64,000 nt of DNA from Thainema sp. (GTDB taxonomy: Bacteria; Cyanobacteriota; Cyanobacteriia; Phormidesmidales; Phormidesmidaceae). Shown here piece by piece: positions 3,738 to 31,514 of this stretch; position 1 is the first letter of the stretch; the number at the start of each line of letters is the position of its first letter. Location: positions 85,638 to 149,637 of the forward strand of contig JBQLZK010000009.1 in assembly GCA_052168235.1 (NCBI GenBank), given 5' to 3'. The notes below the pieces were generated by a model. The model did no database searches, was not told where the DNA came from, and saw only the letters and a list, made by a program, of their open reading frames with translations. The position numbers and the translations under genes were made by a program.

Positions 3738-4250
3738 CTATGCAACAGTACTTTGAACATTAATCGTGTCCTGCTGAATGCGCCGTTGATTTTGGCGCAT
3801 GAGCATCTCTTCAATGCCAACATTGCAGTCTGCTTCTGAACCACCGGCTAGTGCAACAACCGCCCAAATTTCTGCATCAGTTTGGTGATTGATGAACTCA
3901 ATGATTTCGCTTTCAGGAATTTGATGTCTCCCTTTTGCATACTGCAAATGGCGATAAAGCGTGACGCAGTAAATAGTTTTCACTTCGGCTCGGGAGAGAG
4001 AAGCCCGATAGGCTCGCTCACCCCACAAGATTTTGGTGTCACGACTGATCTGATAGAGGGGTGCGCCCAACATATCTGCCACATCCTGTTTCGGAAATTG
4101 TGCGATCGCATCAACGATTTGAGGAACACGAGTGGTTGCTGGGCGTTTACGAATTGGCATGTCATGCAGTCTCCATAAGGGTTTTGCAAGATGGGGGTTA
4201 AAAGACCGTCGAGTTGCAGCATTTGCAAAACTTGTATGCATTAGCAGCAC
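3738..4250 (-). CDS. Hypothetical protein, possibly DNA-binding (start uncertain)
   Basis: KQDVADMLGAPLYQISRD resembles an HTH. The real start may be at MPIRK. Confidence 0.55.
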   Translation of the reverse strand: MLLMHTSFANAATRRSFNPHLAKPLWRLHDMPIRKRPATTRVPQIVDAIAQFPKQDVADMLGAPLYQISRDTKILWGERAYRASLSRAEVKTIYCVTLYRHLQYAKGRHQIPESEIIEFINHQTDAEIWAVVALAGGSEADCNVGIEEMLMRQNQRRIQQDTINVQSTVA

Positions 4251-4367: not shown

Positions 4368-6221
4368 TCAACTGCTGTCGTCCCAATCTGAACTAGGGGG
4401 TCGATTTTCAGGATGGTCTTGCATGGTGATATCTAAGAACTCCTGCTGGGCGGCTGGCCAGCCTGCATCACCCTCAGCCACATTCCAAACGCGACTGATA
4501 ATGTAGGCATTAGATTTGCCTTTGCTGCGTAACTCGAAGATGCGATCGCGTTTCTGCTCACGGGTGAGTTTGGCGATTTTAGGAAAGCACCATTCCTTCA
4601 GGTCGCTGATGGAGGTGTCATAGGCTTGCAGTCGCACGGGCTCTTCTCCACCCCGACGGGCCAGCATGTCACCTTTACCGAGCAACCGTTCACAGCCTGC
4701 CTGCTGAATGACCAGCTCCGAGTCTTTATCCCGCTGGAGCAGTAAGCCGATGCGATGGCCGATTTTGGCGTCTACCTGACGGTGAATCGTCTTTCGATCA
4801 GGCGCTTGGGTGCAGAACAGGATCAGCCAGCCAAAGGTTGCCGCAACCGACATCACATCCGATAGGCGCTTGACCTGTGTCGGTTTGCCGTCGATGACCA
4901 TCGATTCTTTCCGCATATCGGGAAAGCCGATGTGGGACTCGTCAAGAATCCAGACTTTGTAATCGGCTTTGGTGACGCCTTCGAGGTGGTTAAAGTCCTC
5001 AATGTTGGACACACCTTGATAGGCGAATAGGCTACGACGGTTTTCGATATCCTGTTCGACCCATTGCAGTTGGAGTTCTGCATCATCTTCGGAGTGCCCG
5101 ACCAGGCGGTTAGCGGTCGATGGCCATTCCGCCAGGTAGGGGGAATTCTTGAGCGGGTTCAGTTCCGTACCTTTGCCGTCAAAGACGAGGAACTGAATGT
5201 GACGGTATGAGTAGTTTTTGGCGGCGAAGCCGATCATCTGCCGGATCAGGTTGGTCTTGCCAGCCACACGGGGCAGACCACCGATTAAAACAGCCTCCAT
5301 CTGTTTGCCGTCGAGATGGATGTAATGACGAATCTCTTTCAGGTCTACGCCCAGAAATAGCGATGGACGTTTGGGGACTGGGATATCGTCGATTTCATCT
5401 GCTAGCTTCCGCAGCTCCCGATCGGGACGTGCCAGCGACAGAGATAAAAAGCCATGCTCGTTATCTGACATGGGCAGTTTGGGCAGGTGTAGACTGGCCT
5501 GGACAATCGACGGGGTTCGGTCGATGGCTTCTGATAGCTTCTTCGGATCTCGCATCTCCAGAATGAACTGGATAAACGAAGGCCCCTTGAAGCAGGTCAC
5601 ATAATCGGCGTAATAGTTCGCCTTGTGCACCGCTTTGAGCGTGGCCTGCAAGAGTCCATGCACCGTTGGATCGTCTGGGGGATTAGGGATGCGAGGTTCT
5701 GAGGTATCATTTTCCCGCGACACGGCTTGAACAGGTAACGCTTCTGGCTGTGGCGCACTGAGCGCTTTCAGTTCTGCCACGTCAATGCCGAGAATCGCCG
5801 CAATTTCCTCGTCACCTTTCTCTTCAGCTCGCAGGTTTTCCACCACTTGCGCAATTTTCAGCATCTCGGAACTGGTCAGCAGTTGCCGCTGGAGTTCTTC
5901 CTGCTCCCGAACGGCTCGCAGCCGCAGTTCATGATTGAGTTGGCGTAATAGCTCCCGTTCTTCCTTCTCAGCCAGTTTGCTGGTGTGGAAAGCTTTGCTG
6001 AAACCTGCGATCGCAATCATGATGCCAGCCATCTTTGACCAAGAATCCGGTGCATAAATGGCTGCAATTTGAGCACGATTGGTGACAGCCCAATGCGGCA
6101 ACCGCTGACCAGCTGGTGTAACGACGGTTGGATCAAGCCGTCCCCATGAGGCAACCAGCAGGCCCGTGACTCCAGCGGCTTGATAAATCAAGATAGATTG
6201 TCGGTGGATTGAGAAGTCCAT
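4368..6221 (-). CDS. Membrane-anchored FtsK/SpoIIIE-family ATPase (DNA translocase/coupling-like)
   Basis: N-terminal hydrophobic segments and coiled coil; motifs IGGLPRVAGKT (atypical Walker A), FDGKGTEL, ILDESH (Walker B), TQAP and GCERLLGKGDML. Confidence 0.85.
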   Translation of the reverse strand: MDFSIHRQSILIYQAAGVTGLLVASWGRLDPTVVTPAGQRLPHWAVTNRAQIAAIYAPDSWSKMAGIMIAIAGFSKAFHTSKLAEKEERELLRQLNHELRLRAVREQEELQRQLLTSSEMLKIAQVVENLRAEEKGDEEIAAILGIDVAELKALSAPQPEALPVQAVSRENDTSEPRIPNPPDDPTVHGLLQATLKAVHKANYYADYVTCFKGPSFIQFILEMRDPKKLSEAIDRTPSIVQASLHLPKLPMSDNEHGFLSLSLARPDRELRKLADEIDDIPVPKRPSLFLGVDLKEIRHYIHLDGKQMEAVLIGGLPRVAGKTNLIRQMIGFAAKNYSYRHIQFLVFDGKGTELNPLKNSPYLAEWPSTANRLVGHSEDDAELQLQWVEQDIENRRSLFAYQGVSNIEDFNHLEGVTKADYKVWILDESHIGFPDMRKESMVIDGKPTQVKRLSDVMSVAATFGWLILFCTQAPDRKTIHRQVDAKIGHRIGLLLQRDKDSELVIQQAGCERLLGKGDMLARRGGEEPVRLQAYDTSISDLKEWCFPKIAKLTREQKRDRIFELRSKGKSNAYIISRVWNVAEGDAGWPAAQQEFLDITMQDHPENRPPSSDWDDSS

Positions 6222-7598: not shown

Positions 7599-7805
7599 AT
7601 GATTTTTATGATCGATGATGCAGTGAGTAAAAGGTTCTATATCTCTTTGCCTGACGGAATTGCAGATGTGCTAACCCGTTGGGCTGAAAGCGAGGGCAAC
7701 AAACCCACATCCCTAGCGGCTTTTTTGGTTGAAAAAGCTGTAAGGGAAGCAATTGACAGCGGAAAAGTTCCACCTCCACATGAGATAGATAGATCCGATA
7801 AGTAA
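7599..7805 (+). CDS. Ribbon-helix-helix (CopG-like) regulator
   Basis: SKRFYISLPD...LTRWAESEG...SLAAFLVEKAV is typical of cyanobacterial RHH proteins; divergent from the FtsK operon. Confidence 0.85.
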   Translation: MIFMIDDAVSKRFYISLPDGIADVLTRWAESEGNKPTSLAAFLVEKAVREAIDSGKVPPPHEIDRSDK

Positions 7806-7818
7806 GGCGCGATCTCAG

Positions 7819-8422
7819 ATGAGTAATAGTGAAACAGTTAAAGCTCAACGTGCGATAGTTCGCATCGGCAACCTTAAGGTTGAAGGCTTCATGCTGCCCG
7901 ATGGCAGTTATCGCATGTCTCAAACCCAAGCCGCTGAATGTGTGCAGAAGCCCGAAATTAACGCCCGACGTTTTTTAGATTCAAAGGCTATCAAAGCCAT
8001 GCTGGGTAAAGGTTATACGCCCGACAGTATTGAAATTGAATCGGACTTAGATCGGCGTGGACAGAGCCGATTCAACGCGCTGCCATTGGAAGTGATTACA
8101 GCTTTCTGGGTCAATGAGTGTTTTAAGGGCAATCGTGTGGCATTGGCATTAGTCATGGCCTTAGCGACAGAAACACTGGAGCGCCGATTTGATTCAGCGT
8201 TTGGCGTGACGCGAGGAGGAGGATTACGATCAGCAGCTGGCTGAGCGAACAGAACAGATTGAGAAAGCCTTTGGTGATGCCTTTGCCGATGAAGCGGTGA
8301 GCGAACGGGATTATTTTCTGCGGCTGCTACAGGAGAACGGAATTGCCCCCTACGGCATTCCAGGTGAGGAGGAGCCCGTTAATCTAACTTGTTGTGCCCA
8401 AAGCAAATTCGATACAGATTGA
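7819..8422 (+). pseudogene. Mobile-element DNA-binding/antirepressor-like gene, frameshifted near 8212
   Basis: EGFMLPDGSYRMSQTQAA...ETLERRFDSAFGV. A shifted frame continues EEEDYDQQLAER...LLQENGIAPY to TGA at 8420-8422. Confidence 0.6.
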
Positions 8423-8786: not shown

Positions 8787-10346
8787 ATGAGCCAAGCAAC
8801 ATCTGGGCGTCAGGATACCCGACGTTCCCATCCAGAACCGTTACCCGCCGATGCCAACGGTAAGCGGCTGTGTGAATTATTCAACTACCCCTGGCAGTTC
8901 ATCACCGCCACCCTCGACTATCCCCACTACAAACCGAAGTGGGAAACCATCACCCGCTATCCCCTGCGCCCGCGTAACCTGTGGACACAGTGGCAAGACC
9001 CCAATCAGTTAATCGGTGTCCGATTTGGCCACACGACGACCTATGCTCTGATCGACATCGATGCCAAAAGCCAATACATCAATCCAACTGCGATCGCAGA
9101 TCTCCAGTACGCCCTGGAAACCATCGGCATCTGCCGCGTTATGATCCTGCGCTCTAGCTGGAGCGGCGGCCTGCACCTCTACCTACCCTTACCCGAAGCC
9201 GTCAACACCTTCTCCCTGGCCTGCACGCTCAAACACAGCCTCACCGCCCAAGGATTTGAACTCGCCCCCGGTCAACTCGAACTCTTCCCCAACGTCAAAG
9301 CCTGGGCCAACCACTACCGAGGCGAATTCACCCAGTACAACGGCCACCGCCTCCCCCTGCAACCCGATAGCGGCTCCACCCTGCTCGATGCTGAGCTTAA
9401 CCCCCAACCACACGGCACCGATCTCAGTTTGTTCTTCCAGCAGTGGGACATTAGCGCCGATGGCCAAGATCTCACCCTGCTCAACAGCGCCCTCAACCAG
9501 GGCCGCAACCATCAGCGCAAACGCAATCGCCACCATAATCCCCACAGCCACATCGTCGCCACCTGGCAAGCCGACCTCGAAGACGAAATCGCCCAAGGCT
9601 GGACGGACTATAGCCAAACCAACCACCTGCTCAAAACCATCGCCTGCTACGGCGTCGTTTTCCAGCAGCTCAGCGGCGATGACCTAATCGACTACATCCA
9701 GCACACCGCCACCCATAGCCCCGGCTACGACCAATGGTGCCGCCACCGCCACGAAATTCGAGCGCGAGCCAAAGCCTGGGCCAAAGCCGCCGAGAGCTAC
9801 TATTGGCCTCTTGGCAGTAACCCCAAACGCAACACCGAGCATTCCCAACTAGACGGCACCAACAACATCGTCAACTTTAACCAAGAGCGAGCCACCGACG
9901 CACAGAACCGAATTCGAGCCGCTGTGGAACAACTGAGAGCCGATAACCAGCTACCGGACGGAATTACTGCTAGAGCAACTGCGATCGCACCCGTTGCCAA
10001 TACGAGTCGCAAAACGCTCTATAAACCTCGCAATTTAGCCCTGTGGCATCCACAGCATGAGGAGGAGAACCAACAGGTACAGTCTTCAAATCCCGATACG
10101 AAGCAGCGATCGTGTGAACGACCAGACTCCACAAGCAATCCAGCCCATGATCCGACCCATCAGCCGAATTCCGCTCAACGGCTGAAACGACCACACCGCA
10201 AGAAAGTACACACCCTCAAGAAAAATATGAAAGGTAGCCTACTGCCAGCAGCACAATCTAGGTTTCCGGGAAATTTGCGCATCAATCAAAGCCAAGGGCT
10301 ACCAAAATTCCAGATACATCATCCACAAACAGATATCACAGACTGA
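8787..10346 (+). CDS. AEP-superfamily primase-like protein (putative plasmid replication protein), copy A
   Basis: ALIDID (motif I DxD), SSWSGGLHLY (motif II His), GQLELFPN, and a helical C-terminal region. Confidence 0.7.
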   Translation: MSQATSGRQDTRRSHPEPLPADANGKRLCELFNYPWQFITATLDYPHYKPKWETITRYPLRPRNLWTQWQDPNQLIGVRFGHTTTYALIDIDAKSQYINPTAIADLQYALETIGICRVMILRSSWSGGLHLYLPLPEAVNTFSLACTLKHSLTAQGFELAPGQLELFPNVKAWANHYRGEFTQYNGHRLPLQPDSGSTLLDAELNPQPHGTDLSLFFQQWDISADGQDLTLLNSALNQGRNHQRKRNRHHNPHSHIVATWQADLEDEIAQGWTDYSQTNHLLKTIACYGVVFQQLSGDDLIDYIQHTATHSPGYDQWCRHRHEIRARAKAWAKAAESYYWPLGSNPKRNTEHSQLDGTNNIVNFNQERATDAQNRIRAAVEQLRADNQLPDGITARATAIAPVANTSRKTLYKPRNLALWHPQHEEENQQVQSSNPDTKQRSCERPDSTSNPAHDPTHQPNSAQRLKRPHRKKVHTLKKNMKGSLLPAAQSRFPGNLRINQSQGLPKFQIHHPQTDITD

Positions 10347-11732
10347 AAAATTCACGAATTCCGGCCCAACCAACCGATATTCCGCTGAATTACGAACCTG
10401 ATCTAACAAAAAATCAGACACAAACGAGCTGTATTGCTTATCCTCTGGGGAATTACCATCATCGGCACATAATAAGCTTGGGGATAAGGCTTTCTCTTCT
10501 ACATCCAGCTTTTCTGCCTTGATCTGATCCGTTTGATGTTTTTCCAGATCCTCTGGATGCCATAGATCCCGATGTCGATATAAACTTCCTCCACCAATTC
10601 CATAGCTTGTTAAGATCTTGAATCGTTCTGTTGTTTGGCTCGGTAACTGATTCTTTTCTAAAAGATCTGCGATCGCAGCCTGAATTTTTTTACGAGTATC
10701 TTCAGATTTCTGTTGATTCCAACTCGTTCCTTTAGGCTGTTCCGACAAAGTTTTATACTTTCCTTTTGAATAGCCATAGTGAAAGTAGTGACTTGATTCA
10801 ATACATTTAGCCCACTCTTCTATCCGAGACTCTATCTCATGTTGATGCCTGCACCACTCTTTATACCCGGGCAAGGATGTAGCGATTTGAAGAATGTTTT
10901 CAATCAGTCTTTTTCCGTCTAGCGGTGGTTCATTCGTCAAAATATGATGAAAGATATACGATCTCATCGTAATCCGACCGAGCAGCCGATTAGTTTGACC
11001 AAACCCAGTCCAACCCGCTTCAACTTCTGTGTTTAAATCGTCTAGAAATTTCTGAGCTCGTCCAGAGAGTTGATAATAATACTGCCTCTGAACTTGCCTT
11101 AAAATTGCAGCAAGTTGCTTTTGATCAACTTTGTTTTGAGTTTGGCAGTACTGCCATTGGCGCACAAAAAGAGACTGACAGCTCCAAACTGGTTCAAAAT
11201 CACTGTTCAGCAAGTATGAGCCAATTTGAAGCGGTAATCGGTGAGCGTTAAATAGACTGAGTGTTCCATCCCCAGGGTAAGTCCGTCGGTTTGGAAAAAG
11301 CTCCAGTTGACCGGGTGACAGTTTAAAGCCCGAATGCTCTAACAAATATGAAACAGCATTCGCAAGTTGCCACGATTTAATCGTCTTTTGCAGTGGGAAG
11401 TAAAGGTGTAAGCCATTACTGTAGCTTGATGTGCAGGTGATATGCGTTGAGATGCCTAAAGGTTCAAGCGCCTCTAGGATTTTTGCGATCGCAAAGGGAT
11501 CAGTGTTTGGATGGTACTGGCTGCCAATATCAATATCGAGCAAAAAATAGTTTGTAGTCGAGCCAGGACGGACACCAAAGAGTTGTTTCCCCTGCTGAAT
11601 GAGGCGATCTGACAGAGGATATCGGGTTTCAGTGTGCCATTGGGGAGACTCTCCTGCTTCTGGATAGGGAGCATAGATAAAGTCATAACGATTCGGGAAG
11701 AGAGACAAAAACTCGTCGTCCCACTCCTGCAC
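10299..11732 (-). CDS. AEP-superfamily primase-like protein, copy B (paralog of 8787-10346)
   Basis: LLDID, SSYSNGLHLY, PGQLELFPN, HRLPLQ, GWT..QTNRLL and PGYKEWCRHQHEI all match copy A. Confidence 0.7.
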   Translation of the reverse strand: MQEWDDEFLSLFPNRYDFIYAPYPEAGESPQWHTETRYPLSDRLIQQGKQLFGVRPGSTTNYFLLDIDIGSQYHPNTDPFAIAKILEALEPLGISTHITCTSSYSNGLHLYFPLQKTIKSWQLANAVSYLLEHSGFKLSPGQLELFPNRRTYPGDGTLSLFNAHRLPLQIGSYLLNSDFEPVWSCQSLFVRQWQYCQTQNKVDQKQLAAILRQVQRQYYYQLSGRAQKFLDDLNTEVEAGWTGFGQTNRLLGRITMRSYIFHHILTNEPPLDGKRLIENILQIATSLPGYKEWCRHQHEIESRIEEWAKCIESSHYFHYGYSKGKYKTLSEQPKGTSWNQQKSEDTRKKIQAAIADLLEKNQLPSQTTERFKILTSYGIGGGSLYRHRDLWHPEDLEKHQTDQIKAEKLDVEEKALSPSLLCADDGNSPEDKQYSSFVSDFLLDQVRNSAEYRLVGPEFVNFSVCDICLWMMYLEFW

Positions 11733-12257
11733 ATACCTAAATCGGTCAGTGGCAACCGTGCTAACGATATGCCACCTCCGCTACAGCCACTGCAGCTGGG
11801 CACCAAAAACGAAGCTGACCCAATACTTTGGGTGCACTTAGCGCCTTTCGTTGGCGCTTGCGACAATTAGCTTGCCTAACCATTAGTACAGCCTGAAGCA
11901 TTGAGAACTTTTGACCAGCAGCAACGTCCCAGCATTGAAAACTTTGTTTCAGTGCTAGATGGACTTTGTAATCAATAATCACATTGCGAAGATAGTGACC
12001 AAAAATCTGACAAAAGCGCTGACTATTCAAATCACTGAGCAGCAGTTCACAATTCAAGTTTTGCATTGTCTTCTACCTCGATAAGATGCTGCGATCGCAA
12101 CTGTGTTGCTCACGGCAGGATAGAGAGCTTGCACCATATCGATAGAAGTGTCGTAATATGGACACAAAGCTCTAGGCATAAAGCTCTAGGTATAAAGTTC
12201 TGTGGGACACCTAATTCTTCGCCTGCCACAGCACTGGTTAGGTTCCCTATGAATGTG

Positions 12258-12299: not shown

Positions 12300-12480
12300 A
12301 TGGCTACTGTTAGGTCATTTCTTACGCCTCAGCAAAAGCATAAAAGTAGTTATAGCAAGCGCTTTGATGACAAAATACGGCCATGACGCGCTCCTAAAGC
12401 AGCTTTTGTAATCAAAAATGGGTTGATCTGACGGCGCGGATCGTCAAACGACTCGAAATCTCGTCGGCATCAAAACAGAT

Positions 12481-13404
12481 CGTCCCAAGGGTCTAGATTT
12501 TTTGTCCCAGGGGGTCTAGATTTTTTGTCCTGTGGTTCTAGAAAACGGTGTAATCATTGCGGCTCTGTCATCAAACGCAATACTAAACTTCAGCACAAAG
12601 GCTGTATTCTTCTCCAGACAAGCATTTCGACTTCTGTATTAACCTCTAACGATAAGCAAAAGGACAAGGGCCGACATGAAGAGGCATCTGCTTGTAACTT
12701 GCCATTACGAGAATTGATATCAGTCACTAGATTCTGTATGTTCCAGGGTTTTAGAGCAATTGTGTAATCGCTTAGCTTTGTCCCAGGGCTTTAGAGGAAG
12801 CTGTAATCAACGCTATCTCTGTAATCAAGTCGTATGTCCTAAGGCTCTAGAATCACCTGTAATCAAACTCCGAAATCTGTAATCAGGTTCTGTATGTCCC
12901 AGGGTTTTAGAGCAATTTGTAATCACCACGTATAGATCAGTAGAAAGCACGTCCCGAGGGTTTAGAGCAATTTGTAATCAACTTTGGCTAATTTGAACTT
13001 CAGAACGAAGGGCACTATAGCAAGCCATATTGATTAGGACGTTGGGAAACTCTGAGAACGTTCGAGCGGTTCAGCGTTAGATTCTGCAAATGTCTCAACA
13101 AAAGAGCGACGCCGTAGTTACATCTCTTGATGCTCAACCAAGTTGTACTAGGTCCGTGTATAGGAACATTGTTTATTTTGTGTGAAATGCTTGCTGAGCA
13201 AGCATTTCACACAAAATAAACAATGGAGTTTTACCAAATCTCATATTACTACTAAGGTTCTACATGTCCCAACGGTCTAGAAGACTATGTAATCAAAGGT
13301 TCTGTAGCATAGGTTTATGTCCCGACGGTCTAGAGCGACTTGTAGTCAAGCTGTCGCCTGTAATCAGGTTATACGTCTTGGGGGGTCTAGAACACTTGTA
13401 ATCA
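12481..13404 (+). repeat. Iteron-like direct-repeat array (putative oriV); unit YGTCCCNNGGNYYTAGA-N6-TGTAATCA
   Basis: Full units start at 12526, 12739, 12779, 12835, 12895, 12950, 13265, 13318 and 13374. Half units at 12481 and 12503. Extra TGTAATCA at 12407, 12820, 12878 and 13359. Confidence 0.85.
13167..13225. repeat. Perfect 59-bp palindrome (29-bp arms, 1-nt centre)
   Basis: CATTGTTTATTTTGTGTGAAATGCTTGCT-G-AGCAAGCATTTCACACAAAATAAACAATG. Confidence 0.95.
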
Positions 13405-13419
13405 AAATTAGTGTCGCCG

Positions 13420-14847
13420 CTACATGAACTCGAATGCCCGTTGTAAGGCGGCTTCAGTTTCAGCAGTAATTTGGCGCTCTCCTTTTTCGATGAGCGAAAT
13501 CAGAGATTGGCTCAAACCGGTGAAGGAAGCGAGTTTGCGCTGCGACCAACCGCGCTGATTACGCTGTTTTTTGACATCAGCACTAGTCATTACAACTATG
13601 CTGGATTCACTCTCTGTATCCGTCTGCAAATCAGCATCAATCTGAGACGGTAGTGATAACGAAAACCAGTCATCCGGTGGACTAATCCATACTTTCGCCG
13701 TTAATAGCTGTTCAAAAAAACCTTTAGGGCGATTTGCCGTTTCTCGACCCAACCCATAGGGCCGAATATCGTTAGGGTAGGTTTCGGCATCAAATTGAAT
13801 TCCCCAACCCTGATCTCTCAGTACAAACAAATCCTCATCCCAAGCATTGGCAATTCTGGAGCGAATCTTTCGATTTGAGATCGCTTGGTTCAGTCTCTCG
13901 CTACTATAAGCCACTTCCATCAACGTTTTTACATCGTAGGGATAAAGCTGATTCTGCTGAGATTTAAACAGGAGCCAGATCATTAAGCGGGCAGCGCCCT
14001 CACGATGTTGCCAGATACTCATCACGCTCTCTAGCAGAGCCTTAGAGAGATTGCTGTATTGAGGCGAATCAGCTGATCCACCGTCCCCAGACTCGCTCAA
14101 AAAATGCTTTGCCCACGATCCAGGCTTGATAACAAAAGTCATTCCAGCAATATCCTTTGTATCATCCAGTAAGTTCTGCTGATAGTGATATCGCGTTTCA
14201 ATTAAATGCCAAAGTCGCCCTTCGGCAACCGTAAATCCTTTTTGCTTGGGCGTACTTTTCCAAGTAATAAACGTGGTAATTTTGCAGGGCTGCTCAACTA
14301 AGTCTTTGATGAGCTCTAGCTTCTGCTGTCGATTTAAGTCCGTGCGTTTGTAAAGCCCCAGATACTTCTCAAGCTGTCTGTCATCAACAACAATTTCATG
14401 CTCCCACGGATCTTCGACCCGAGCAGCATAAGCGGCATATACCAAGTGCATACAAGCGGCTCGGATATCAAACGTATCAATTACGGCCAAAGCCGCAGCA
14501 CTCGCCAATCCAACGGGATGATCGCTTTCGGCCTCATCTGTTACCCAAAAATGGATCGCGCCCTCTCCCGTGTCAAAATCACGCACATAGGACAGACGGC
14601 CATCCGGATCGGTCTGCCAAGGTAAATGCTTGCGGCGAGTTAGGATATTGCTTGCTTCCAGAAGCGGTAAGGAAGACGGGACAGGAGTCGTGCTGCTGTC
14701 AGAAAACAAATCTGGATGCGTCATGCGGCGCTCATCAACTAAGTTAGATGCCGCTTTTACTTTGCCCCGTTTTTTCTGAGGTCGCTCATCCCGATCTGAG
14801 CTATGAGTTGGATGATTAGCGTCCTGCTGAGATCTAGAAGAAGCCAT
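13420..14847 (-). CDS. Putative replication initiator-like protein with C-terminal XRE HTH
   Basis: C-terminal RNQRGWSQRKLASFTGLSQSLISLIEKG HTH. The gene ends 15 bp from the repeat array. The Rep function is inferred from context. Confidence 0.65.
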   Translation of the reverse strand: MASSRSQQDANHPTHSSDRDERPQKKRGKVKAASNLVDERRMTHPDLFSDSSTTPVPSSLPLLEASNILTRRKHLPWQTDPDGRLSYVRDFDTGEGAIHFWVTDEAESDHPVGLASAAALAVIDTFDIRAACMHLVYAAYAARVEDPWEHEIVVDDRQLEKYLGLYKRTDLNRQQKLELIKDLVEQPCKITTFITWKSTPKQKGFTVAEGRLWHLIETRYHYQQNLLDDTKDIAGMTFVIKPGSWAKHFLSESGDGGSADSPQYSNLSKALLESVMSIWQHREGAARLMIWLLFKSQQNQLYPYDVKTLMEVAYSSERLNQAISNRKIRSRIANAWDEDLFVLRDQGWGIQFDAETYPNDIRPYGLGRETANRPKGFFEQLLTAKVWISPPDDWFSLSLPSQIDADLQTDTESESSIVVMTSADVKKQRNQRGWSQRKLASFTGLSQSLISLIEKGERQITAETEAALQRAFEFM

Positions 14848-14986: not shown

Positions 14987-16051
14987 CTAATTATCTGTCT
15001 CAGTGTCATCTTCTAGCTCTTCAGCTGCGGTGCTGAGTTCAGTCTCAAGCTGTTCAATCGTGGGTAAATTATTTTGAAAATTGGGTGGCAGTTGAGACTG
15101 TAGTTCATAGGTTGAAACGCCAATTGGCTGTTGGCTTCCTTGCAGCGCATATTCCACAGTTGTTTTATCCTTGGCTTTGCAGAGAATAATGCCAATCGTG
15201 GGATCATCTCGTTCACTACGCAGTAAATTGTCTACTGCCGCGACATAAAAGCTCATCTGTCCCGAATGCTGTGGCTCAAATTCACCCATTTTCAAATCGA
15301 TGACCACATAGCAATGAAGATGGACATGGTAGAACAGGAGATCAAGCCGATATTCTTTGCCGCTAACCACTAATGGATATTGACTCCCCAAAAAGGCAAA
15401 CCCTAGCCCTAGCTCCATCAAGAAATCGCGGATATGCTTAACCAGAGCATGTTCTAGCTCCCGCTCCTGAGCCGCCTCGGTGAGGGTCAAAAAATCAAAG
15501 TGATACGGATCCTTCACGAGCTGCTGAGCCAGGTCAGATTGAGGGGCAGGTAAAGCCCGCTCAAAATTCGTCACTGCTCCACCTTGCCGCTGGTACAGAT
15601 TACTCTCAATCTGCATTACCAAAATATTGCGACTCCACCCGTTAGTAATCGTTCGCTGTACGTACCAGAGTCGTTCATCCTGATCCTTCACCAGCTCCAA
15701 CAACCGAATATTGTGGCCCCACGGAATTTGGCCAACAAGCTGTTGGACAATTTGCTCATCAGGATACGCCTCGGCAAACGCGCGCATATTTTTGAGATTG
15801 GAGCGAGAAAACCCCTTCATGTCCGGGAATTCTTTTTTGAGATCTGCCGCTAGCCGATCAATTACCTTTGCACCCCAGCCTTCCGATTCTTGCTTGGCCA
15901 GAATATCCTGCCCAATTTGCCAATAGAGATAGATCAGCTCTTGGTTTACGGCCAACGCAGCTCTCACCTGCGCTGAACGAATACGCTGCTTTAAGCCATT
16001 GAGAAAATCGTTATAGTTGCGATCGGAAAAAAGAGAAGACTGTCGAGGCAT
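14987..16051 (-). CDS. yhcG: YhcG/DUF1016 PD-(D/E)xK nuclease-family protein
   Basis: VNQELIYLYWQIG, IPWGHN, KDPYHFDFL, RLDLLFYH..L.CYVVIDLK and PTIGIILCK motifs. Confidence 0.92.
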   Translation of the reverse strand: MPRQSSLFSDRNYNDFLNGLKQRIRSAQVRAALAVNQELIYLYWQIGQDILAKQESEGWGAKVIDRLAADLKKEFPDMKGFSRSNLKNMRAFAEAYPDEQIVQQLVGQIPWGHNIRLLELVKDQDERLWYVQRTITNGWSRNILVMQIESNLYQRQGGAVTNFERALPAPQSDLAQQLVKDPYHFDFLTLTEAAQERELEHALVKHIRDFLMELGLGFAFLGSQYPLVVSGKEYRLDLLFYHVHLHCYVVIDLKMGEFEPQHSGQMSFYVAAVDNLLRSERDDPTIGIILCKAKDKTTVEYALQGSQQPIGVSTYELQSQLPPNFQNNLPTIEQLETELSTAAEELEDDTETDN

Positions 16052-16270: not shown

Positions 16271-16298
16271 GAGTTACCCAAAACGTTTTGGGTAATTC
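16271..16298. promoter_or_regulatory. parS-like palindrome upstream of parA
   Basis: GAGTTACCCAAAACGTTTTGGGTAATTC; the core is identical to the copy inside parB. Confidence 0.75.
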
Positions 16299-16481: not shown

Positions 16482-16562
16482 TAGACCTCTTGCATGAATC
16501 GAAAAACACAACGTAATCATAGAGGTTTCAGCCTTCAAACTCTGGTTCGTGCAAGAGGTCTA
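16482..16562. mobile_element. MITE-like 81-bp element with 19-bp terminal inverted repeats
   Basis: TAGACCTCTTGCATGAATC ... GGTTCGTGCAAGAGGTCTA (17 of 19 match). Confidence 0.5.
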
Positions 16563-16594: not shown

Positions 16595-17350
16595 ATGAGT
16601 AAAGTCATTACGCTATTTAATCAGTCAGGAGGGGTTGCCAAGACCACACTGACAATGAATCTGGGGTATCACCTCGCCAAGAAGCGACATCGAGTGCTAT
16701 TGGTTGACATGGATCCCCAAGCATCATTAACCACGTTTCTCGGACTCGATCCCGTCGAGCTATCGCAAACGATCTATGAATCGGTGGTGGGTGAGGAAAG
16801 CCTGCCGATTCATCATAAGATCCACGGTTGTGATGTGGTTCCATCCAACATTAACTTGAGTGCCGCTGAGCTAGAGCTGGTTTCTGCGCTGATGCGTGAA
16901 ATGCGGCTCAAGGATGCGCTAGCTCCAGTGCTGGATCAGTATGATTTTATTCTGATCGACTGTCCTCCGAGCCTTGGCATTTTGAGCGTGATTAGCTTGG
17001 CCGCAGCAACTCATGTGCTGGTACCAATTCAGACTCAGTTCAAGGCATTTCAAGGAACTGATTTGCTGCTGAGCACTATTGCCGGACTGCGATCGCGCGT
17101 TAACCGCTCACTTGCGATCGCAGGTTTTGTCCCCACGATGTACGACAGCCGCACCGCTCAAGAAAGCCGAACGCTGAAAGCCATTCAAGATCAGCTATCT
17201 GTCTTAGGGACTGTCTTTGATCCCATTCCAAAATCGATTGCTTTTGCGGATGCTTCAGAAGCTCGTCTGCCGTTGGCAGTTTATAACGCCAAGCATCCTG
17301 CCGTTCGCGTACTGAAGAAAATTGCCACTGGCATGGAGAAACTGACGTGA
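16595..17350 (+). CDS. parA: ParA/Soj partition ATPase
   Basis: NQSGGVAKTT deviant Walker A, VDMDPQASLT and IDCPPSLG motifs. Confidence 0.95.
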   Translation: MSKVITLFNQSGGVAKTTLTMNLGYHLAKKRHRVLLVDMDPQASLTTFLGLDPVELSQTIYESVVGEESLPIHHKIHGCDVVPSNINLSAAELELVSALMREMRLKDALAPVLDQYDFILIDCPPSLGILSVISLAAATHVLVPIQTQFKAFQGTDLLLSTIAGLRSRVNRSLAIAGFVPTMYDSRTAQESRTLKAIQDQLSVLGTVFDPIPKSIAFADASEARLPLAVYNAKHPAVRVLKKIATGMEKLT

Positions 17351-18291
17351 ATACCCGCAAAAAAGATCAGCCTTATACCAGTCAACTGAGAGGCGTCGCA
17401 GCACTCTTGGGAACGCAGCCAATCGACTCAGCCACAGAGGCCGCCGCCGAGTTTGTAGAGATTAGCCAAATCACACTGCCCAATTCTCAACCACGTCGAT
17501 ACTTCGATCCCCAAAAGCTACAAGAACTCTCAGCCTCTATTAAAGAACATGGTGTTTTAGAACCATTACTGACTCGTTCATTGAATGGTCAGTACGAACT
17601 AGTCGCTGGAGAGCGCCGTTACAGAGCCGCCAAGCTTGCTGGGCTAACACAAGTTCCGGTTGTCGTAAAACAGCTTACCGATCAGGAAGCGCTCCAGCTG
17701 GCCCTAATCGAAAACCTTCAGCGTGAGGATCTCAATCCGGTAGAAGAAACACAGGGCATTCTCGATCTGCTGGCCGTCCGCCTCGACACCACTGTAGAAG
17801 AAGTCATTTCACTGCTCCATCGGATGCAGAATGAAGCAAAAGGCAAAGTTACCCAAAACGTTTTGGGTAACTCACAAGGTCAAGCTATCCAAAACGTTTT
17901 CGACTCACTTGGCTTGATTGGTTGGGAATCCTTCGCGACCAGTCGCCTCCCCTTACTCAAACTGCCAACTGATGTGCTGGATGCACTGCAAGCAGGAAAA
18001 ATTGCTTACACCAAGGCAAGTGCGATCGCGCGGATCAAGGATGCCGATCAGCGGCACAAATTATTGACAGAAGCCATTAAGCAACAGTATTCACTATCCC
18101 AAATCAAAGCCCAAATTAAACACATTCAGGCACCAGCCAAACACATCACACCTTCAGCCGATTTGGGTCATCGTGTGGATCAAGTCTACAAAGCTGTAAA
18201 GCGCTCCAAGGTCTGGAATAACCCTCAAAAGCGAAAGCGACTTGAGAAACTACTGACGTCGATTGAAGATTTACTAGAATCTGGACAGTAA
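17347..18291 (+). CDS. parB: ParB/Spo0J partition protein
   Basis: QPRRYF, LVAGERRYRAA and LIENLQREDLNPVEE motifs; 4-bp overlap with parA. Confidence 0.95.
   Translation: MNTRKKDQPYTSQLRGVAALLGTQPIDSATEAAAEFVEISQITLPNSQPRRYFDPQKLQELSASIKEHGVLEPLLTRSLNGQYELVAGERRYRAAKLAGLTQVPVVVKQLTDQEALQLALIENLQREDLNPVEETQGILDLLAVRLDTTVEEVISLLHRMQNEAKGKVTQNVLGNSQGQAIQNVFDSLGLIGWESFATSRLPLLKLPTDVLDALQAGKIAYTKASAIARIKDADQRHKLLTEAIKQQYSLSQIKAQIKHIQAPAKHITPSADLGHRVDQVYKAVKRSKVWNNPQKRKRLEKLLTSIEDLLESGQ
17847..17872. promoter_or_regulatory. parS-like 26-bp perfect palindrome inside parB
   Basis: AGTTACCCAAAACGTTTTGGGTAACT. Confidence 0.75.
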
Positions 18292-27852: not shown

Positions 27853-28016
27853 CTATTGAATCTTAAAGACAGTAAAACATTCACCCATAAGACGAGATAG
27901 CCTCATCGGTTGTGACAAGTCGCCAAAATTCGGGTGCTGTTTCCTTGGCCGGAAGGATAGGCAGCAACTACTTCATCCGTTACGCTGAGAGTGTTTTGGA
28001 GCTATCACGAATTTAG

Positions 28017-28493
28017 TTGCAATCGCACCGTGCTGATCTCGATTTTGGCAATGGCGAACGGGTCACGCTGCGTGACATCGGTGAATGGTCGCTGCCGCAG
28101 ACTGACCTGGTTGTCCTGAGTGCCTGTGAAACGGCTGTGAGTGAAGAACTGGGCAACGGGGAAGAGATCCTCGGCTTTGGCTACCAGATGCAGCGGATTG
28201 GCGTGGAAGCTGCGATCTCATCGCTGTGGCAAGTGAGCGATGGGGGAACGCAAGTGCTGATGAATACGCTGTATGCCTCATTGCAAGATGGTCACAGTAC
28301 CGCAGCAGCTTTACAACAAGCACAGATGGCGTTAATCGCAGGCGAATGTTACGGGGTAGAAAACTGCGATCTCAGTTTTCCAAGAGGTATTGCGGTAATT
28401 GGAATTGAGCCAAATCAGCCATCATCTGTCAGCACCAACCTGAGCCATCCCTACTACTGGGCACCGTTCATTCTGATTGGCAATGGCTTATAA
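28017..28493 (+). pseudogene. C-terminal fragment of a CHAT (caspase-like) domain
   Basis: LVVLSACETA, SLWQVSD and HPYYWAPFILIGN present; the catalytic His region is missing. Confidence 0.8.
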
Positions 28494-28534
28494 CATTAGT
28501 GTTGATGGCCCCCCCAAATCCTGACCAGATGTCT

Positions 28535-28576
28535 ATTCGTGTTGTTTCTGCCACATTTTACAGGAGTAACACGAAT
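28535..28576. repeat. 42-bp palindromic element, copy 4
   Basis: ATTCGTGT-TGTTTCTGCCACATTTTACAGGAGTA-ACACGAAT. Confidence 0.85.
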
Positions 28577-28628
28577 AAACTGATTTGCTAGGTGCATTAG
28601 AGCAGTGCGATCTCATCTTCAACTCCTG

Positions 28629-29492
28629 CTATCTCAAGCTTTCACAAGCAACTCTATCATCATCTCCATCGAGTCGATGTGGATCACCAGGAGAGGACTC
28701 CAGTACATCTTGAGCCTGTCTCCAACTGGAAAAATCGCCACAGTCGCAGTCACTGTTGATGCAGGCAGGCAAGTCTGCCGCAGCGGTCGGTGATGGTTCA
28801 GTCGCTGAAGGGGCAGAAGGTGAAACGGCTGGAGTGGACGAAGCGGTTACTGGGCGTTTTCCTTGGCGATAGTCCCAGGGCTTAATGAATGCTAAGTCAC
28901 CCCAGACTCCCTTGCCAGTTGATCGGGCTCGTTCTTCTGCCGCCAGTAACTCATCTGCATTGTTGCCACAGTTACTTAGATATTGGGTGTAGACCACGGC
29001 ATCGCCTGACTCCAGCATTTGCAGATTGATAAAATTGCCTTCTGCCGTATATACCTCAGCGACTGTGCGCCCATACGCATCCTGATCCACGACGTTGAGC
29101 TGTATTTGTCCCGATATCAAACTGGATAGTCGCTCAGTGGCATCTGCACCATGTGGTGCCTGAGCTGACTCTGGCGAATCGATACAGGCTAACCTCACGG
29201 TAATCGTCTCGCCATCGCGAAAAGCGTCGATCGTGTCGCCATCATAAATTTTTGACACTGTGTAAAGTGGTTCGGTATTTGTCTCTTCATCTACAGCAGT
29301 TGGTGCTTGAGATGATGGAGATGCTGTGTTCTGAGCTGTATCTGTAGAGATTGATGGACTAACTGGCCGGTTATCCGCAACATCTGCATTGTAACTGTTA
29401 ATGACAGCAAAAATGATCAACGCTAGCCCCATTCCAACGACAGCTAGGCTAGAGAGAATCAGCCATTTATAGTGATACCAGCGTTGAAACAT
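28629..29492 (-). CDS. Membrane-anchored thermonuclease (SNase) with Excalibur-like Ca-binding C-terminus
   Basis: YDGDT, VRLACIDSPE, DAYGRTVA and KPWDYR motifs; C-terminal DCDCGDF...HRLDGDDDRVACE. Confidence 0.9.
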   Translation of the reverse strand: MFQRWYHYKWLILSSLAVVGMGLALIIFAVINSYNADVADNRPVSPSISTDTAQNTASPSSQAPTAVDEETNTEPLYTVSKIYDGDTIDAFRDGETITVRLACIDSPESAQAPHGADATERLSSLISGQIQLNVVDQDAYGRTVAEVYTAEGNFINLQMLESGDAVVYTQYLSNCGNNADELLAAEERARSTGKGVWGDLAFIKPWDYRQGKRPVTASSTPAVSPSAPSATEPSPTAAADLPACINSDCDCGDFSSWRQAQDVLESSPGDPHRLDGDDDRVACESLR

Positions 29493-29534
29493 AAGTCGAT
29501 ATGAGTTTCGGTCGAAAGATTGCGCCTGTCTAGT

Positions 29535-29900
29535 TTACTGTTCAGCTTTACCTAGCAGCGCTTGTTCAAGTTCCCGTGCGCTGTGCCGATCGCCTAGCTC
29601 TAGAAAATCAAAGACATATTCATCCCGAACCGCTAGGTTAGCTTGATTTCGCAGTGACTCTGGCAGCGTCTCGGCAAAGTTAGTCTGGTTCAATAGCGTC
29701 TTTTCATAGGACTGGTTCTCGATCTGATGAATCAAAACGCTCTTTGTCCATCCATATTTGCGAGTCATGCGGATGTAGAACTCTCGCTCCAGATCATCCT
29801 TACACTTCTCGATAATGACCAGGTTATGGCTTCAACCAATTTCTCGCACGAGTGGTGCGAGTTTTTCAGAACGCTCATAGGTTTCATAGAAGAGTTTCAT
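29535..29900 (-). pseudogene. Fragment of a second YhcG/DUF1016 gene
   Basis: FYIRMTRKYGWTKSVLIHQIE...VRDEYVFDFL...RELEQAL; truncated on both sides. Confidence 0.75.
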
Positions 29901-30122
29901 CCGCATCTCGATTCATTGCTCCACCTCGCTCCATCTTAAATATCGGTATCGGCTGCTTCGGTAGCTTCTTATCAGATAGTTTGCCGAGTTCTGCGAGCGG
30001 CTTGAGCTAAACGACAGACGCATCAACTGCGATCGCATCTGCATCCGCTAGGGAGAGATGAAGAAGATGGGGTATTTGAGGTGCGATCGCAGATCTATTC
30101 GATAACTCGGTCGGCTCAAACA

Positions 30123-31232
30123 TTAAATCGATTCTCCTGCTACTACGACTGGCTCTACAAATGGAAGACTGAGCTGCTGATATTCAATCGGCTGAGTACT
30201 GGTCAGATTAGAAATGGTAATCCCTAATAGCCGCACCTTAGCTCCGGGCTGCACATTCTCTTGCAGCAACGCTTTCGCCGTTTGATAGATCCGGGTTGCG
30301 TCCCGAAATGGAGTCGGTTGGGTACAGCTGCGTGTCATCTGCTGATAATCGGCAGACTTCACCTTCAGCGTTAGCGTATAGCCATAGCGCTGATGCCTCA
30401 TTAACCGCTGCTCAACCTGATGCGCAATCTCATCCAGTTCCTGGCACATCTGCTCTATCTCACTCAAGTCTTCATAGAACGACTGCTCGGCTCCCACCGA
30501 CTTACGGATGCGATTGGGATTGACGGGTCGATGATCTTGCCCGCGTGCCACCTGATAATAGAATCGACCCACTTTGCCAAAGTGACGCACCAGAGACTCT
30601 TCCGGCCACTGCTTTAGATCGGCTCCCGTGTGAATACCCAACGCCTGCATCTTTTGCGCCGTCACCTGACCAATGCCATAGAACTGGCGGATGGGAAGTG
30701 CTTCCACAAAGGATGCCGATTGTTCAGGTGGAATGAGGGATAGCCCATCCGGTTTATCTAAATCTGAAGCAATCTTGGCCAAGAACTTGTTAATCGATAC
30801 TCCTGCTGATGCCGTGAGTCGAGTTTCGCGCAGAATATCCCGCTTAATCTGACGTGCGATCGCCATTGCCGACGCGCAGTCAATTTTATTCTGCGTCACA
30901 TCCAAGTAGGCTTCGTCTAGAGATAACGGCTCAATCAGATCGGTATAGCGATGAAAGACGGCCCGGATTTGCTGAGAGACTTGGCGATACACCTCAAAGC
31001 GAGGTTTGACAAAGATGAGATGGGGACAGCGCTGCACGGCAATTCGAGACGGCAAAGCGGAATGAATGCCGTAGCGACGTGCTTCATAGCTGGCGGCGGC
31101 TACGGCTCCCCGTTGCTCGGGTCGTCCACCCACCACAATCGGGCGATCTCGATAGGCCGGATGGTCGCGCTGCTCAATGGAGGTGTAGAACGCGTCCATA
31201 TCGACATGAATGATTTTGCGAATCGGTTCCAT
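30123..31232 (-). CDS. dinB: DNA polymerase IV (Y-family)
   Basis: IIHVDMDAFY, ASYEARRYG, SLDEAYLD and AKIASDLDKPDG motifs. Confidence 0.96.
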   Translation of the reverse strand: MEPIRKIIHVDMDAFYTSIEQRDHPAYRDRPIVVGGRPEQRGAVAAASYEARRYGIHSALPSRIAVQRCPHLIFVKPRFEVYRQVSQQIRAVFHRYTDLIEPLSLDEAYLDVTQNKIDCASAMAIARQIKRDILRETRLTASAGVSINKFLAKIASDLDKPDGLSLIPPEQSASFVEALPIRQFYGIGQVTAQKMQALGIHTGADLKQWPEESLVRHFGKVGRFYYQVARGQDHRPVNPNRIRKSVGAEQSFYEDLSEIEQMCQELDEIAHQVEQRLMRHQRYGYTLTLKVKSADYQQMTRSCTQPTPFRDATRIYQTAKALLQENVQPGAKVRLLGITISNLTSTQPIEYQQLSLPFVEPVVVAGESI

Positions 31233-31514
31233 TGCCCGATCTCAAAACAGTGTGGAGAGCCCTAGCATTTTGTTGTGCTAGAGCTCCACTATTTTAGTTG
31301 ATGCATACTGCATTTATCTACATAGTTGCCTGCTTAGCCCAGCTGATCAGCAGCTTTAGGCTCTGTTGCAATGAATAAGATCCGTCTCCAGACGCGTCGT
31401 TGACTCAAGTGGGCCGACTGCATGTGACGATAGAACGCTATTTGAACAGTTTCAAGCAGAAGTGGACTTTCAGCAAGTAAGGAGGAAAGTCTTACTGCTG
31501 TCATTTCTCTGGTT

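Follow-up and report, generated by a model that had tools for sequence, protein, structure and literature searches.

A 64,000-nucleotide stretch of DNA from the cyanobacterium Thainema sp. (the window; contig JBQLZK010000009.1 of assembly GCA_052168235.1) contains an array of bipartite repeats, located between a gene for a 475-residue protein and a gene for a primase-like protein. Array, initiator-like gene and primase-like gene together most likely constitute an unannotated type of plasmid replication origin. In its full form, this reading is that the region is probably an iteron-type origin and control region, read by an initiator with two winged-helix domains (WH1 and WH2) and an XRE-type helix-turn-helix (HTH) domain, which works with interchangeable primase modules. 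The reading is built on the repeats, their conservation and geometry, the predicted fold, synteny and occurrence on plasmids, all of which were computed. An iteron origin had been proposed for this place in an earlier note on the same DNA, and the initiator fold and the repeats beside homologous genes both support it. No description of the protein family, the repeat motif or the module was found in the literature searched.

Coordinates given are positions in the window, and box counts were compared with those in 100 shuffled sequences. Read on the minus strand, the repeat unit is TGATTACA-N6-TCTAGA/TCTAAA-N1-CC-N3-4-GGAC, with box 1 before and box 2 after the six-nucleotide spacer. Box 1 (TGTAATCA on the plus strand) occurs 15 times on the two strands of the window, against 2.25 ± 1.55 copies expected, and none of the shuffles reached 15; eleven plus-strand copies are located inside 12407-13404 and a twelfth at 11967. 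Box 2 (GTCCYNNGGNYYTAGA, with at most two mismatches) has 14 matches against 5.8 expected, a count attained by one shuffle in 100. Nine of these matches have zero or one mismatch, all of them on the plus strand between 12482 and 13334; the remaining five have two mismatches each and lie elsewhere.

The array (12407-13404, minus strand) is composed of nine full units, two half units containing only box 2 and four lone copies of box 1, all in one orientation, and it forms three clusters. Cluster I (12482-12573, minus strand) contains the two half units (12482-97 and 12505-20), a full unit (12527-56) and a box 1 with one mismatch (TGTCATCA). Cluster II (12740-12980, minus strand) is formed by five full units (12740-70, 12780-809, 12836-65, 12896-925 and 12951-80) and lone boxes at 12820 and 12878, and cluster III (13266-13404, minus strand) by three full units (13266-95, 13319-48 and 13375-404) and a lone box at 13359. 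The fourth lone box 1 is found at 12407, and an outlying fifth (11967-11974, minus strand) is situated between the array and the primase-like gene. Three units are degenerate: box 1 is slightly off in 12740-70 (TGTAATCG), which also has a seven-nucleotide spacer, and in 13319-48 (TGTAGTCA), and box 2 of 13375-404 has one extra base. Start-to-start distances inside the clusters are 53-60 bp, with one exception of 40 bp; for the half units the distance is 22-23 bp. Between the end of the last box, at 13404, and the stop codon of the 475-residue open reading frame, at 13420-22, there is a gap of 15 bp. The earlier note had given the same units in the same single orientation, the same spacings and the same gap; the box table agrees with it exactly.

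A perfect palindrome of 59 bp (13167-13225; two arms of 29 nucleotides around a one-nucleotide centre) is present between clusters II and III. The stretch containing it has the lowest G+C content of the array region (34%), and the palindrome might serve for unwinding or as a hairpin. Its candidacy as an origin element shared between loci was rejected: comparable hairpins occur in just 5 of 22 related arrays, their sequences are unrelated, and the feature is thus locus-specific.

Thirty-nucleotide units that are repeated regularly, in a single orientation and over a long non-coding stretch, might also belong to a transcribed repeat RNA, a small-RNA locus or a locus resembling clustered regularly interspaced short palindromic repeats, a possibility that the earlier note had listed as its less likely alternative. 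We regard it as scarcely credible. Six units tested on both strands do not form a stable fold (z-scores of +0.4 to +1.4, worse than shuffled sequences), and an Rfam scan (E ≤ 1) gives no family above threshold, only sub-threshold microRNA-like hairpin matches on the palindrome. The sequences between the units are not unique spacers of constant length. Furthermore, box order and the six-nucleotide gap are kept across genera while the spacer letters vary, which is the geometry of a DNA site.

The candidate initiator gene (P0001) runs from 13420 to 14847 on the minus strand, as indicated by the list of open reading frames, an HTH_3 match and a structure model. Its product is predicted to have a disordered N-terminus (residues 1-44), a double winged-helix core (47-397), a variable linker (398-416) and a C-terminal XRE-type HTH domain (417-475). 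The HTH domain is encoded by 13423-13599 (minus strand), as delimited by the Pfam and structure matches, and the core, with a fold like that of pi, RepE and RctB, by 13657-14709 (minus strand), coordinates computed from residue numbers; the alignment to 2nra_C spans model residues 47-393 and that to 5ubf_A residues 59-397. In Pfam the protein matches HTH_3 alone (PF01381; residues 425-464, E 2.8e-9, bit score 37.3, cut-off 23), and nothing beyond the HTH was matched in Pfam, NCBIfam, PHROGs or the sequences of the Protein Data Bank (PDB), so that the core is, as noted earlier, not recognised by sequence. The five-helix XRE fold matches known structures over residues 415-475, with Z-scores of up to 9.4. 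The family is large, with 633 proteins at E ≤ 1e-3 among 8000 candidates scored; the source names given are cyanobacterial or generic HTH labels. In a representative library it comprises 283 clusters at 50% identity, and many members have N-termini that are 100-350 residues longer.

A first structure model, calculated from 25 close sequences, was poor (predicted local distance difference test score, pLDDT, of 59) and was replaced by one from 96 diverse members, with a mean pLDDT of 88.9 and a predicted template modelling score of 0.78; low-confidence segments are limited to the N-terminus (1-44), the linker (398-416) and a loop near 255. When the fold was searched against 48,161 representative chains, the first-ranked match was the pi protein of R6K on iteron DNA (2nra_C; Z 11.4, root-mean-square deviation 4.0, 228 of 252 residues, model residues 47-393) and the second was RctB domains 2-3 (5ubf_A; Z 9.8, 247 of 277 residues aligned). 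The other 48 matches listed in that search involve the XRE domain only. The top three Foldseek matches are all RctB domains 2-3 (E 2.6e-3 to 1.3e-2, probability 1.00 for the best), of which 5tbf_B has a Z-score of 10.4 on realignment. Realigning the Foldseek list also yielded many RepE54 entries and the complexes of Rep with iteron or DNA unwinding element, at Z 8.3-8.6 and with 204-218 of 211-228 residues aligned, over 90% of each chain. Pi and RctB domains 2-3 were likewise the two best matches of the poor first model. Language-model features of residues 40-400 point the same way: the nearest clusters carry Rep3_N in 36% and 11% of their members (score 0.95, 200 of 256 features).

In the model, residues 47-397 thus adopt the double winged-helix fold of iteron-binding initiators, with no detectable sequence kinship. 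The structure prediction against winged-helix Rep proteins that the earlier note had suggested returned, outside the HTH, PDB matches to pi, RctB domains 2-3 and RepE54 only. Its proposal of an initiator is thereby supported; its count of two DNA-binding domains is not, as the model contains three putative DNA-reading modules, WH1, WH2 and the XRE HTH.

From these features we infer that the protein binds the repeats, with a division of the boxes among its domains, and that the origin fires here with a role for the primase-like protein. The 475-residue protein would then be the origin-binding initiator of a plasmid-type replicon. The pair of winged-helix domains would read the 16-bp box 2 (TCTAGA-N-CC-N3-4-GGAC), the part that survives as 22-bp tandems beside distant homologs, and the XRE domain would read the 8-bp box 1 (TGATTACA) located 6 bp away. 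Such a split would explain why full units, box-2-only units and lone box 1 copies coexist, and the flexible, poorly conserved linker could let the protein work on full, half and lone sites alike. Oligomers of the initiator on the three clusters may open or remodel the DNA, after which the adjoining primase-type protein would start synthesis; in other lineages this role would be taken by a CyRepA1 or a DUF3987 primase-helicase. As with iterons, surplus sites might also keep the partner gene repressed and hold the copy number down, through titration or handcuffing.

Homologs that are 49-57% identical to the window protein show that the module is widespread in cyanobacteria and not unique to the window. 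The three best records (L001, L002 and L003) each have the gene, then 660-820 bp of non-coding DNA with the same boxes, TGATTACA (TATTACA in Gloeocapsa) and TCTAGAACCC..CCC, and then a large gene. Together with a genome-collection scan of 35 loci, from which one incomplete locus (L038) was set aside, these records make up a set of 37. An array, defined as at least three TGATTACA boxes within 2.2 kb of the gene, is present in 24 of the 37, downstream of the homolog in 16 and upstream in 8, the latter in a divergent arrangement with 3-23 boxes. In all 19 loci with flanking sequence, the array is located between the initiator-like gene and a second gene that points away from it. On the sense strand of the partner, 22 of 28 sequences have the composite TGATTACA-N6-NCTAGA, whereas none of these 28 has it on the opposite strand; the orientation of the boxes is fixed relative to the primase-type partner gene, not to the initiator gene.

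The partners belong to three groups: a cyanobacterial family lacking a Pfam domain, which contains the window partner (copy B), its paralog (copy A), the proteins of 15 further loci and that of L001; a CyRepA1/DUF3854 protein, in L003; and, in L002 and L036, a DUF3987/PriCT_1 protein about 1150 residues long. Because the boxes remain constant while the partner comes from three unrelated families, the constant protein, of the 475-residue type, is the likelier reader of the boxes. The HTH sequence GWSQRKLA..SQGLIS is common to all 20 loci with box 1; the locus with the TATTACA variant has SQPKLS, and Nostocales loci with box 2 only have SQAKLA..SQ[NK][FL]IS. This correlation between HTH and box 1 is confounded by relatedness, and loci without arrays also keep the box-1-type HTH.

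The fixed orientation could also reflect a plain operator array, the protein being a transcription factor that acts through many operators as repressor or activator of the primase-type gene, and at times of its own, with the origin elsewhere or set by the primase or helicase alone. Invariably, the array is found 5' of the partner gene and in a fixed orientation towards it, and a divergent arrangement places it upstream of both genes; XRE domains are typical repressors, and chromosomal family members without adjoining arrays could be plain regulators. In Synechocystis, moreover, CyRepA1 and its upstream region suffice for replication of pSYSA, according to the available text of PMC9978351. Against this, 1 kb of DNA with at least 15 sites, grouped in three clusters, goes beyond what an operator would need, the core fold is that of iteron initiators and of no known regulator family, and 22-bp tandems in distant loci have the classical iteron layout. 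No promoter-like site stands out at the array (1 against 4.6 expected), and the scan for promoters and terminators gave no excess. We consider an operator without origin function unlikely. Iteron initiators normally autoregulate as well, and therefore regulation of the neighbouring genes does not exclude an origin.

The proposed iteron origin is further illustrated by more distant homologs. By tblastn, at least 44 plasmid records contain homologs, and all ten genera that are named are cyanobacterial. Seven distant plasmid loci were read, with homologs 23-31% identical to the window protein, and six of them have direct repeats in the same place. Two Nostoc plasmids contain three perfect 22-bp tandems (CTCTAGAATCCCCGGAC...) between the gene and that of a PriCT-2 protein about 1190 residues long; in Geminocystis, three 22-bp tandems (TGACTAGAATGGGGGGATGAAC) precede a CyRepA1 gene, and Tolypothrix has two (the 22-bp tandems are those of loci L041, L042, L044 and L047). 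In Acaryochloris marina pREB1, six tandem 78-bp units directly follow the homolog (L045:5022-5712), ahead of a gene for a 679-residue protein; they contain a 35-nucleotide core (AGGATGAGACAA.TTTCTCCGTATCC...), of which there are two further copies, and their sequence is unrelated to the window boxes. Calothrix has other repeats ahead of a DUF3854 gene, and the Pseudanabaena locus has none beside the homolog. On a Nostoc plasmid of 33.9 kb, the homolog and its partner are the only annotated replication candidates.

The earlier note had asked for repeats beside homologs, and these exist: the same bipartite boxes beside close homologs, and different direct repeats in the same position beside distant plasmid homologs. 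In the loci compared, repeats beside homologs are thus the rule and drift as the protein diverges, and box 2 is the part of the repeat that persists longest, at the classical iteron period of 22 bp.

Several observations weigh against the origin reading. For the fold, none of 77 family members, each scanned singly, matches PF01051 (Rep_3) at E ≤ 1, among PDB sequences a profile of the 96 members hits XRE HTH chains alone, with nothing for the core, no Foldseek match of the model reaches E 1e-3, and the aligner's own notes state that Z-scores near 8-11 can come from common arrangements. For the array, a conserved A+T-rich unwinding element was not found in related arrays, and DnaA boxes are not above chance, with 108 in the window against 116 expected and none notable in the array. 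For the close loci, 13 of the 37 lack a TGATTACA array as defined above. Among these, L002 has variant boxes and L004 and L013 have two boxes each, the contig of L004 ending 302 bp past the gene. L011 and L029 have tandems directly after the homolog (three of 15 bp at L011:2121-2167, and four of 15 bp and three of 17 bp at L029:2856-2930 and 4088-4152), which may be alternative iterons, and L033 and L034 have other repeats nearby. L018, L025, L027, L031 and L032 have no repeats at all, and all except L031 are on contigs of 0.36-3.3 Mb; this inspection for other repeats covered the array-less loci other than L028. The replication of pSYSA by CyRepA1 and its upstream region in the absence of such a protein, mentioned above, belongs on the same side. 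Finally, the contig containing the window (draft assembly) has no terminal overlap, and its sequence does not establish it as a plasmid; its HIP1 density is lower than that of the largest contigs.

A chromosomal branch of the family also weighs on this side. Of 401 genomes sampled from the phylum and searched with a profile, 158 have a match at E ≤ 1e-10, of which about 102 (a count of rows) are full-length and the rest HTH-only near E 1e-11. In one family, all 45 genomes sampled have the branch, and in the closed genomes among those listed it is on the main chromosome. The proteins of twelve such loci (L049-L060) have 528-557 residues and align with the window protein along almost all of its length, at 31-38% identity. 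Among 13 chromosomal loci, these twelve and one of the window genome (C32:65965-67380), a gene for a 97-residue 2[4Fe-4S] ferredoxin is a neighbour in eight and COX2 in five, the locus of the window genome having neither. No arrays adjoin the chromosomal-branch genes in the four loci with flanks examined, nor either of two distant paralogs in the window genome, whose loci listed with this branch are that at C32 and C66:23433-24992. The fold by itself therefore does not imply a plasmid origin. Some cyanobacteria reportedly replicate their chromosome independently of DnaA (PMC7198777). That the chromosomal branch could be part of this process is a long shot.

Partition genes are located about 3 kb from the array, as the earlier note had indicated: a parA-parB pair (16595-18291, plus strand), with Pfam matches to AAA_31/CbiA and to ParB_N/HTH_ParB. 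Upstream of parA, a 28-nucleotide palindrome (16271-16298) and a 17-nucleotide inverted repeat (16482-16562) are candidate partition or operator sites. Direct-repeat arrays with a dedicated binding protein are typical of plasmid centromeres. The array might thus be a centromere-like or incompatibility (handcuffing) site at which the protein pairs or positions plasmid copies and no replication starts, and parAB or ParB-like genes do occur within a few kb in the window, L001, L002 and L045. This seems improbable, as the window pair is a standard ParA/ParB pair with upstream palindromes of its own, the constant neighbour of the arrays is a primase-type gene and not a partition ATPase, and the fold matches are to initiators.

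If the array is an iteron origin, its closest counterparts are the Rep_3/pi/RepE systems (pi of R6K, RepE of F, RepA of pPS10). In the model, the tandem winged-helix domains match some 90% of each pi or RepE chain. The direct repeats are beside the gene and in helical register, with a period of 22-23 bp in the half units and in distant homologs, and the context is that of a plasmid with partition genes. There are also differences: the window protein has no detectable sequence relationship to these initiators, as the PF01051 scans indicate (0 of 77), its core exceeds theirs by about 100 residues and includes a long beta-hairpin region (190-242), and it has an added C-terminal XRE HTH. Their iterons are back-to-back 19-22-mers, whereas the window repeats are mostly bipartite 30-bp units 53-60 bp apart. 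The window module also lacks DnaA boxes above chance and is paired with a dedicated primase gene of an interchangeable family.

In outline, the proposed combination of a separate iteron binder and a plasmid primase resembles IncQ plasmids, as does the large palindrome beside the repeats; the comparison implies no homology. RSF1010 encodes the iteron binder RepC, the primase RepB' and the helicase RepA, its priming is host-independent and its oriV contains ssi sites. By contrast, there is no plasmid helicase gene beside the window array, and the window palindrome is not conserved in related loci.

For RctB, which initiates replication of Vibrio cholerae chromosome 2, domains 2-3 match the modelled core (Z 9.8-10.4, 247 residues). 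The available text of PMC3401445 and PMC8565311 describes RctB as an initiator of several domains that recognises two kinds of site, iterons and 39-mers, a further likeness to what is proposed for the window protein. However, no RctB chain was found in the sequence searches with the window protein. The extra DNA-binding parts of RctB are its domains 1 and 4, whereas the window protein ends in a disordered N-terminus and an XRE HTH. Nothing comparable to the crtS/39-mer logic is present in the window, which belongs to a cyanobacterial host and has a plasmid-type context. A precedent for an added domain is TrfA of RK2, a winged-helix initiator whose site-specific binding to DNA depends on an extra domain, according to the available text of PMC8034659. 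This domain is N-terminal and is not an XRE HTH, and no TrfA structure is among the matches listed for the window model.

Among cyanobacterial plasmid replication systems, that of CyRepA1 on Synechocystis pSYSA (others are CyRepA2 and CyRepX1/2) is linked to the window module by the genes after the array, annotated as CyRepA1 family in L003 and L044 and as DUF3854 in L043. The 475-residue protein itself has no DUF3854 or helicase domain. For pSYSA, the available text of PMC9978351 describes ssr7036/asRNA1 transcripts upstream of CyRepA1 and no protein of the 475-residue family. CyRepX1 of pSYSX also differs: against a 1121-residue open reading frame (27957-31322), taken as Slr6031 (CyRepX1) by its position beside the duplicated region only (available text of PMC10899382), hhalign gives the initiator family a probability of 2.6% and the partner family one of 0.4% (CyRepX comprises Slr6031 and Slr6090). 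The window module differs from known iteron systems by its fused XRE domain, bipartite 30-bp units, fixed pairing with a primase gene and interchangeable partner families.

Information on plasmid replication proteins of cyanobacteria is limited, as stated in the available text of the 2024 study in which CyRepX was named (PMC10899382). If the reading is right, a gene annotated as 'helix-turn-helix transcriptional regulator' in many genomes, and present on at least 44 plasmid records, would encode an origin-binding initiator, and the origin would be recognisable by simple motifs. Adjoining large primase-helicases, including members of the CyRepA1 family, would work with a separate origin reader. 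The module would be an example of an iteron initiator that has gained a third DNA-binding domain and bipartite sites, could be tested as a minimal replicon for shuttle vectors in filamentous cyanobacteria, and would provide a basis for plasmid incompatibility typing. More tentatively, it may be the type example of an undescribed, cyanobacteria-wide replicon class, in which a three-module initiator on bipartite iterons forms a portable cassette for origin recognition, joined in different plasmids to three or more mutually unrelated families of primases or primase-helicases, CyRepA1 included; in many plasmids those 'Rep' proteins would then be priming engines rather than origin readers.

The partner gene (copy B; 477 residues; 10299-11732, minus strand) is transcribed away from the array, so its position agrees with the earlier description of the array as upstream of 'primase copy B'; the name itself is less well founded. 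Copy B has no match in Pfam or NCBIfam and is 59% identical to the protein encoded in the same position in L001 and 45-57% identical to 15 further partners. Across 17 sequences of its family, D66-I67-D68 and S105..G107-L108-H109 are invariant, and these residues might correspond to the DxD and sxH catalytic motifs of archaeo-eukaryotic-type primases. Primase matches are to phrog_21866 (E 0.018) and, non-significantly, to the LigD polymerase domain (E 0.38); a BLASTP comparison with CyRepA1 of L003 gives E 0.16. The primase label is weak: it comes from the invariant DxD and S..GLH motifs, PHROG matches of E 0.006-0.036 and the non-significant LigD match. The convergent paralog, copy A (519 residues; 8787-10346, plus strand), is 36% identical to copy B, and the 3' ends of the two genes overlap by 48 bp. 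Copy A has PHROG primase matches at E 0.0064 and 0.036. No repeat array was seen upstream of it, so that among the two paralogs only copy B has one, and neither paralog has DUF3854 or helicase matches in Pfam. An open reading frame of 101 residues (11761-12066, minus strand) between the array and the primase-like gene is probably not a gene, as it has no homolog in 48 loci or in its own genome.

Other genes complete the surroundings. A YhcG/DUF1016 nuclease gene of the PD-(D/E)XK type (14987-16051, minus strand) is situated between the initiator gene and parAB, and upstream of copy A there is a gene for a 68-residue RHH_5 (CopG-like) protein, followed by a 141-residue open reading frame (7599-8244, plus strand). 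Further left, a 617-residue FtsK/SpoIIIE-family protein (4368-6221, minus strand) suggests DNA-transfer functions. Accessory cargo between 31608 and 59569 includes a 2881-residue LVIVD/cadherin-repeat protein, a 1792-residue DEAD and MrfA-Zn helicase, a 1293-residue TPR-CHAT protein, a DUF1822 protein and a CHASE2-CHAT protein, and to the left of these are a DinB-type polymerase, an SNase and a trpB-trpA pair beside a LysR gene; such cargo is typical of large plasmids or islands.

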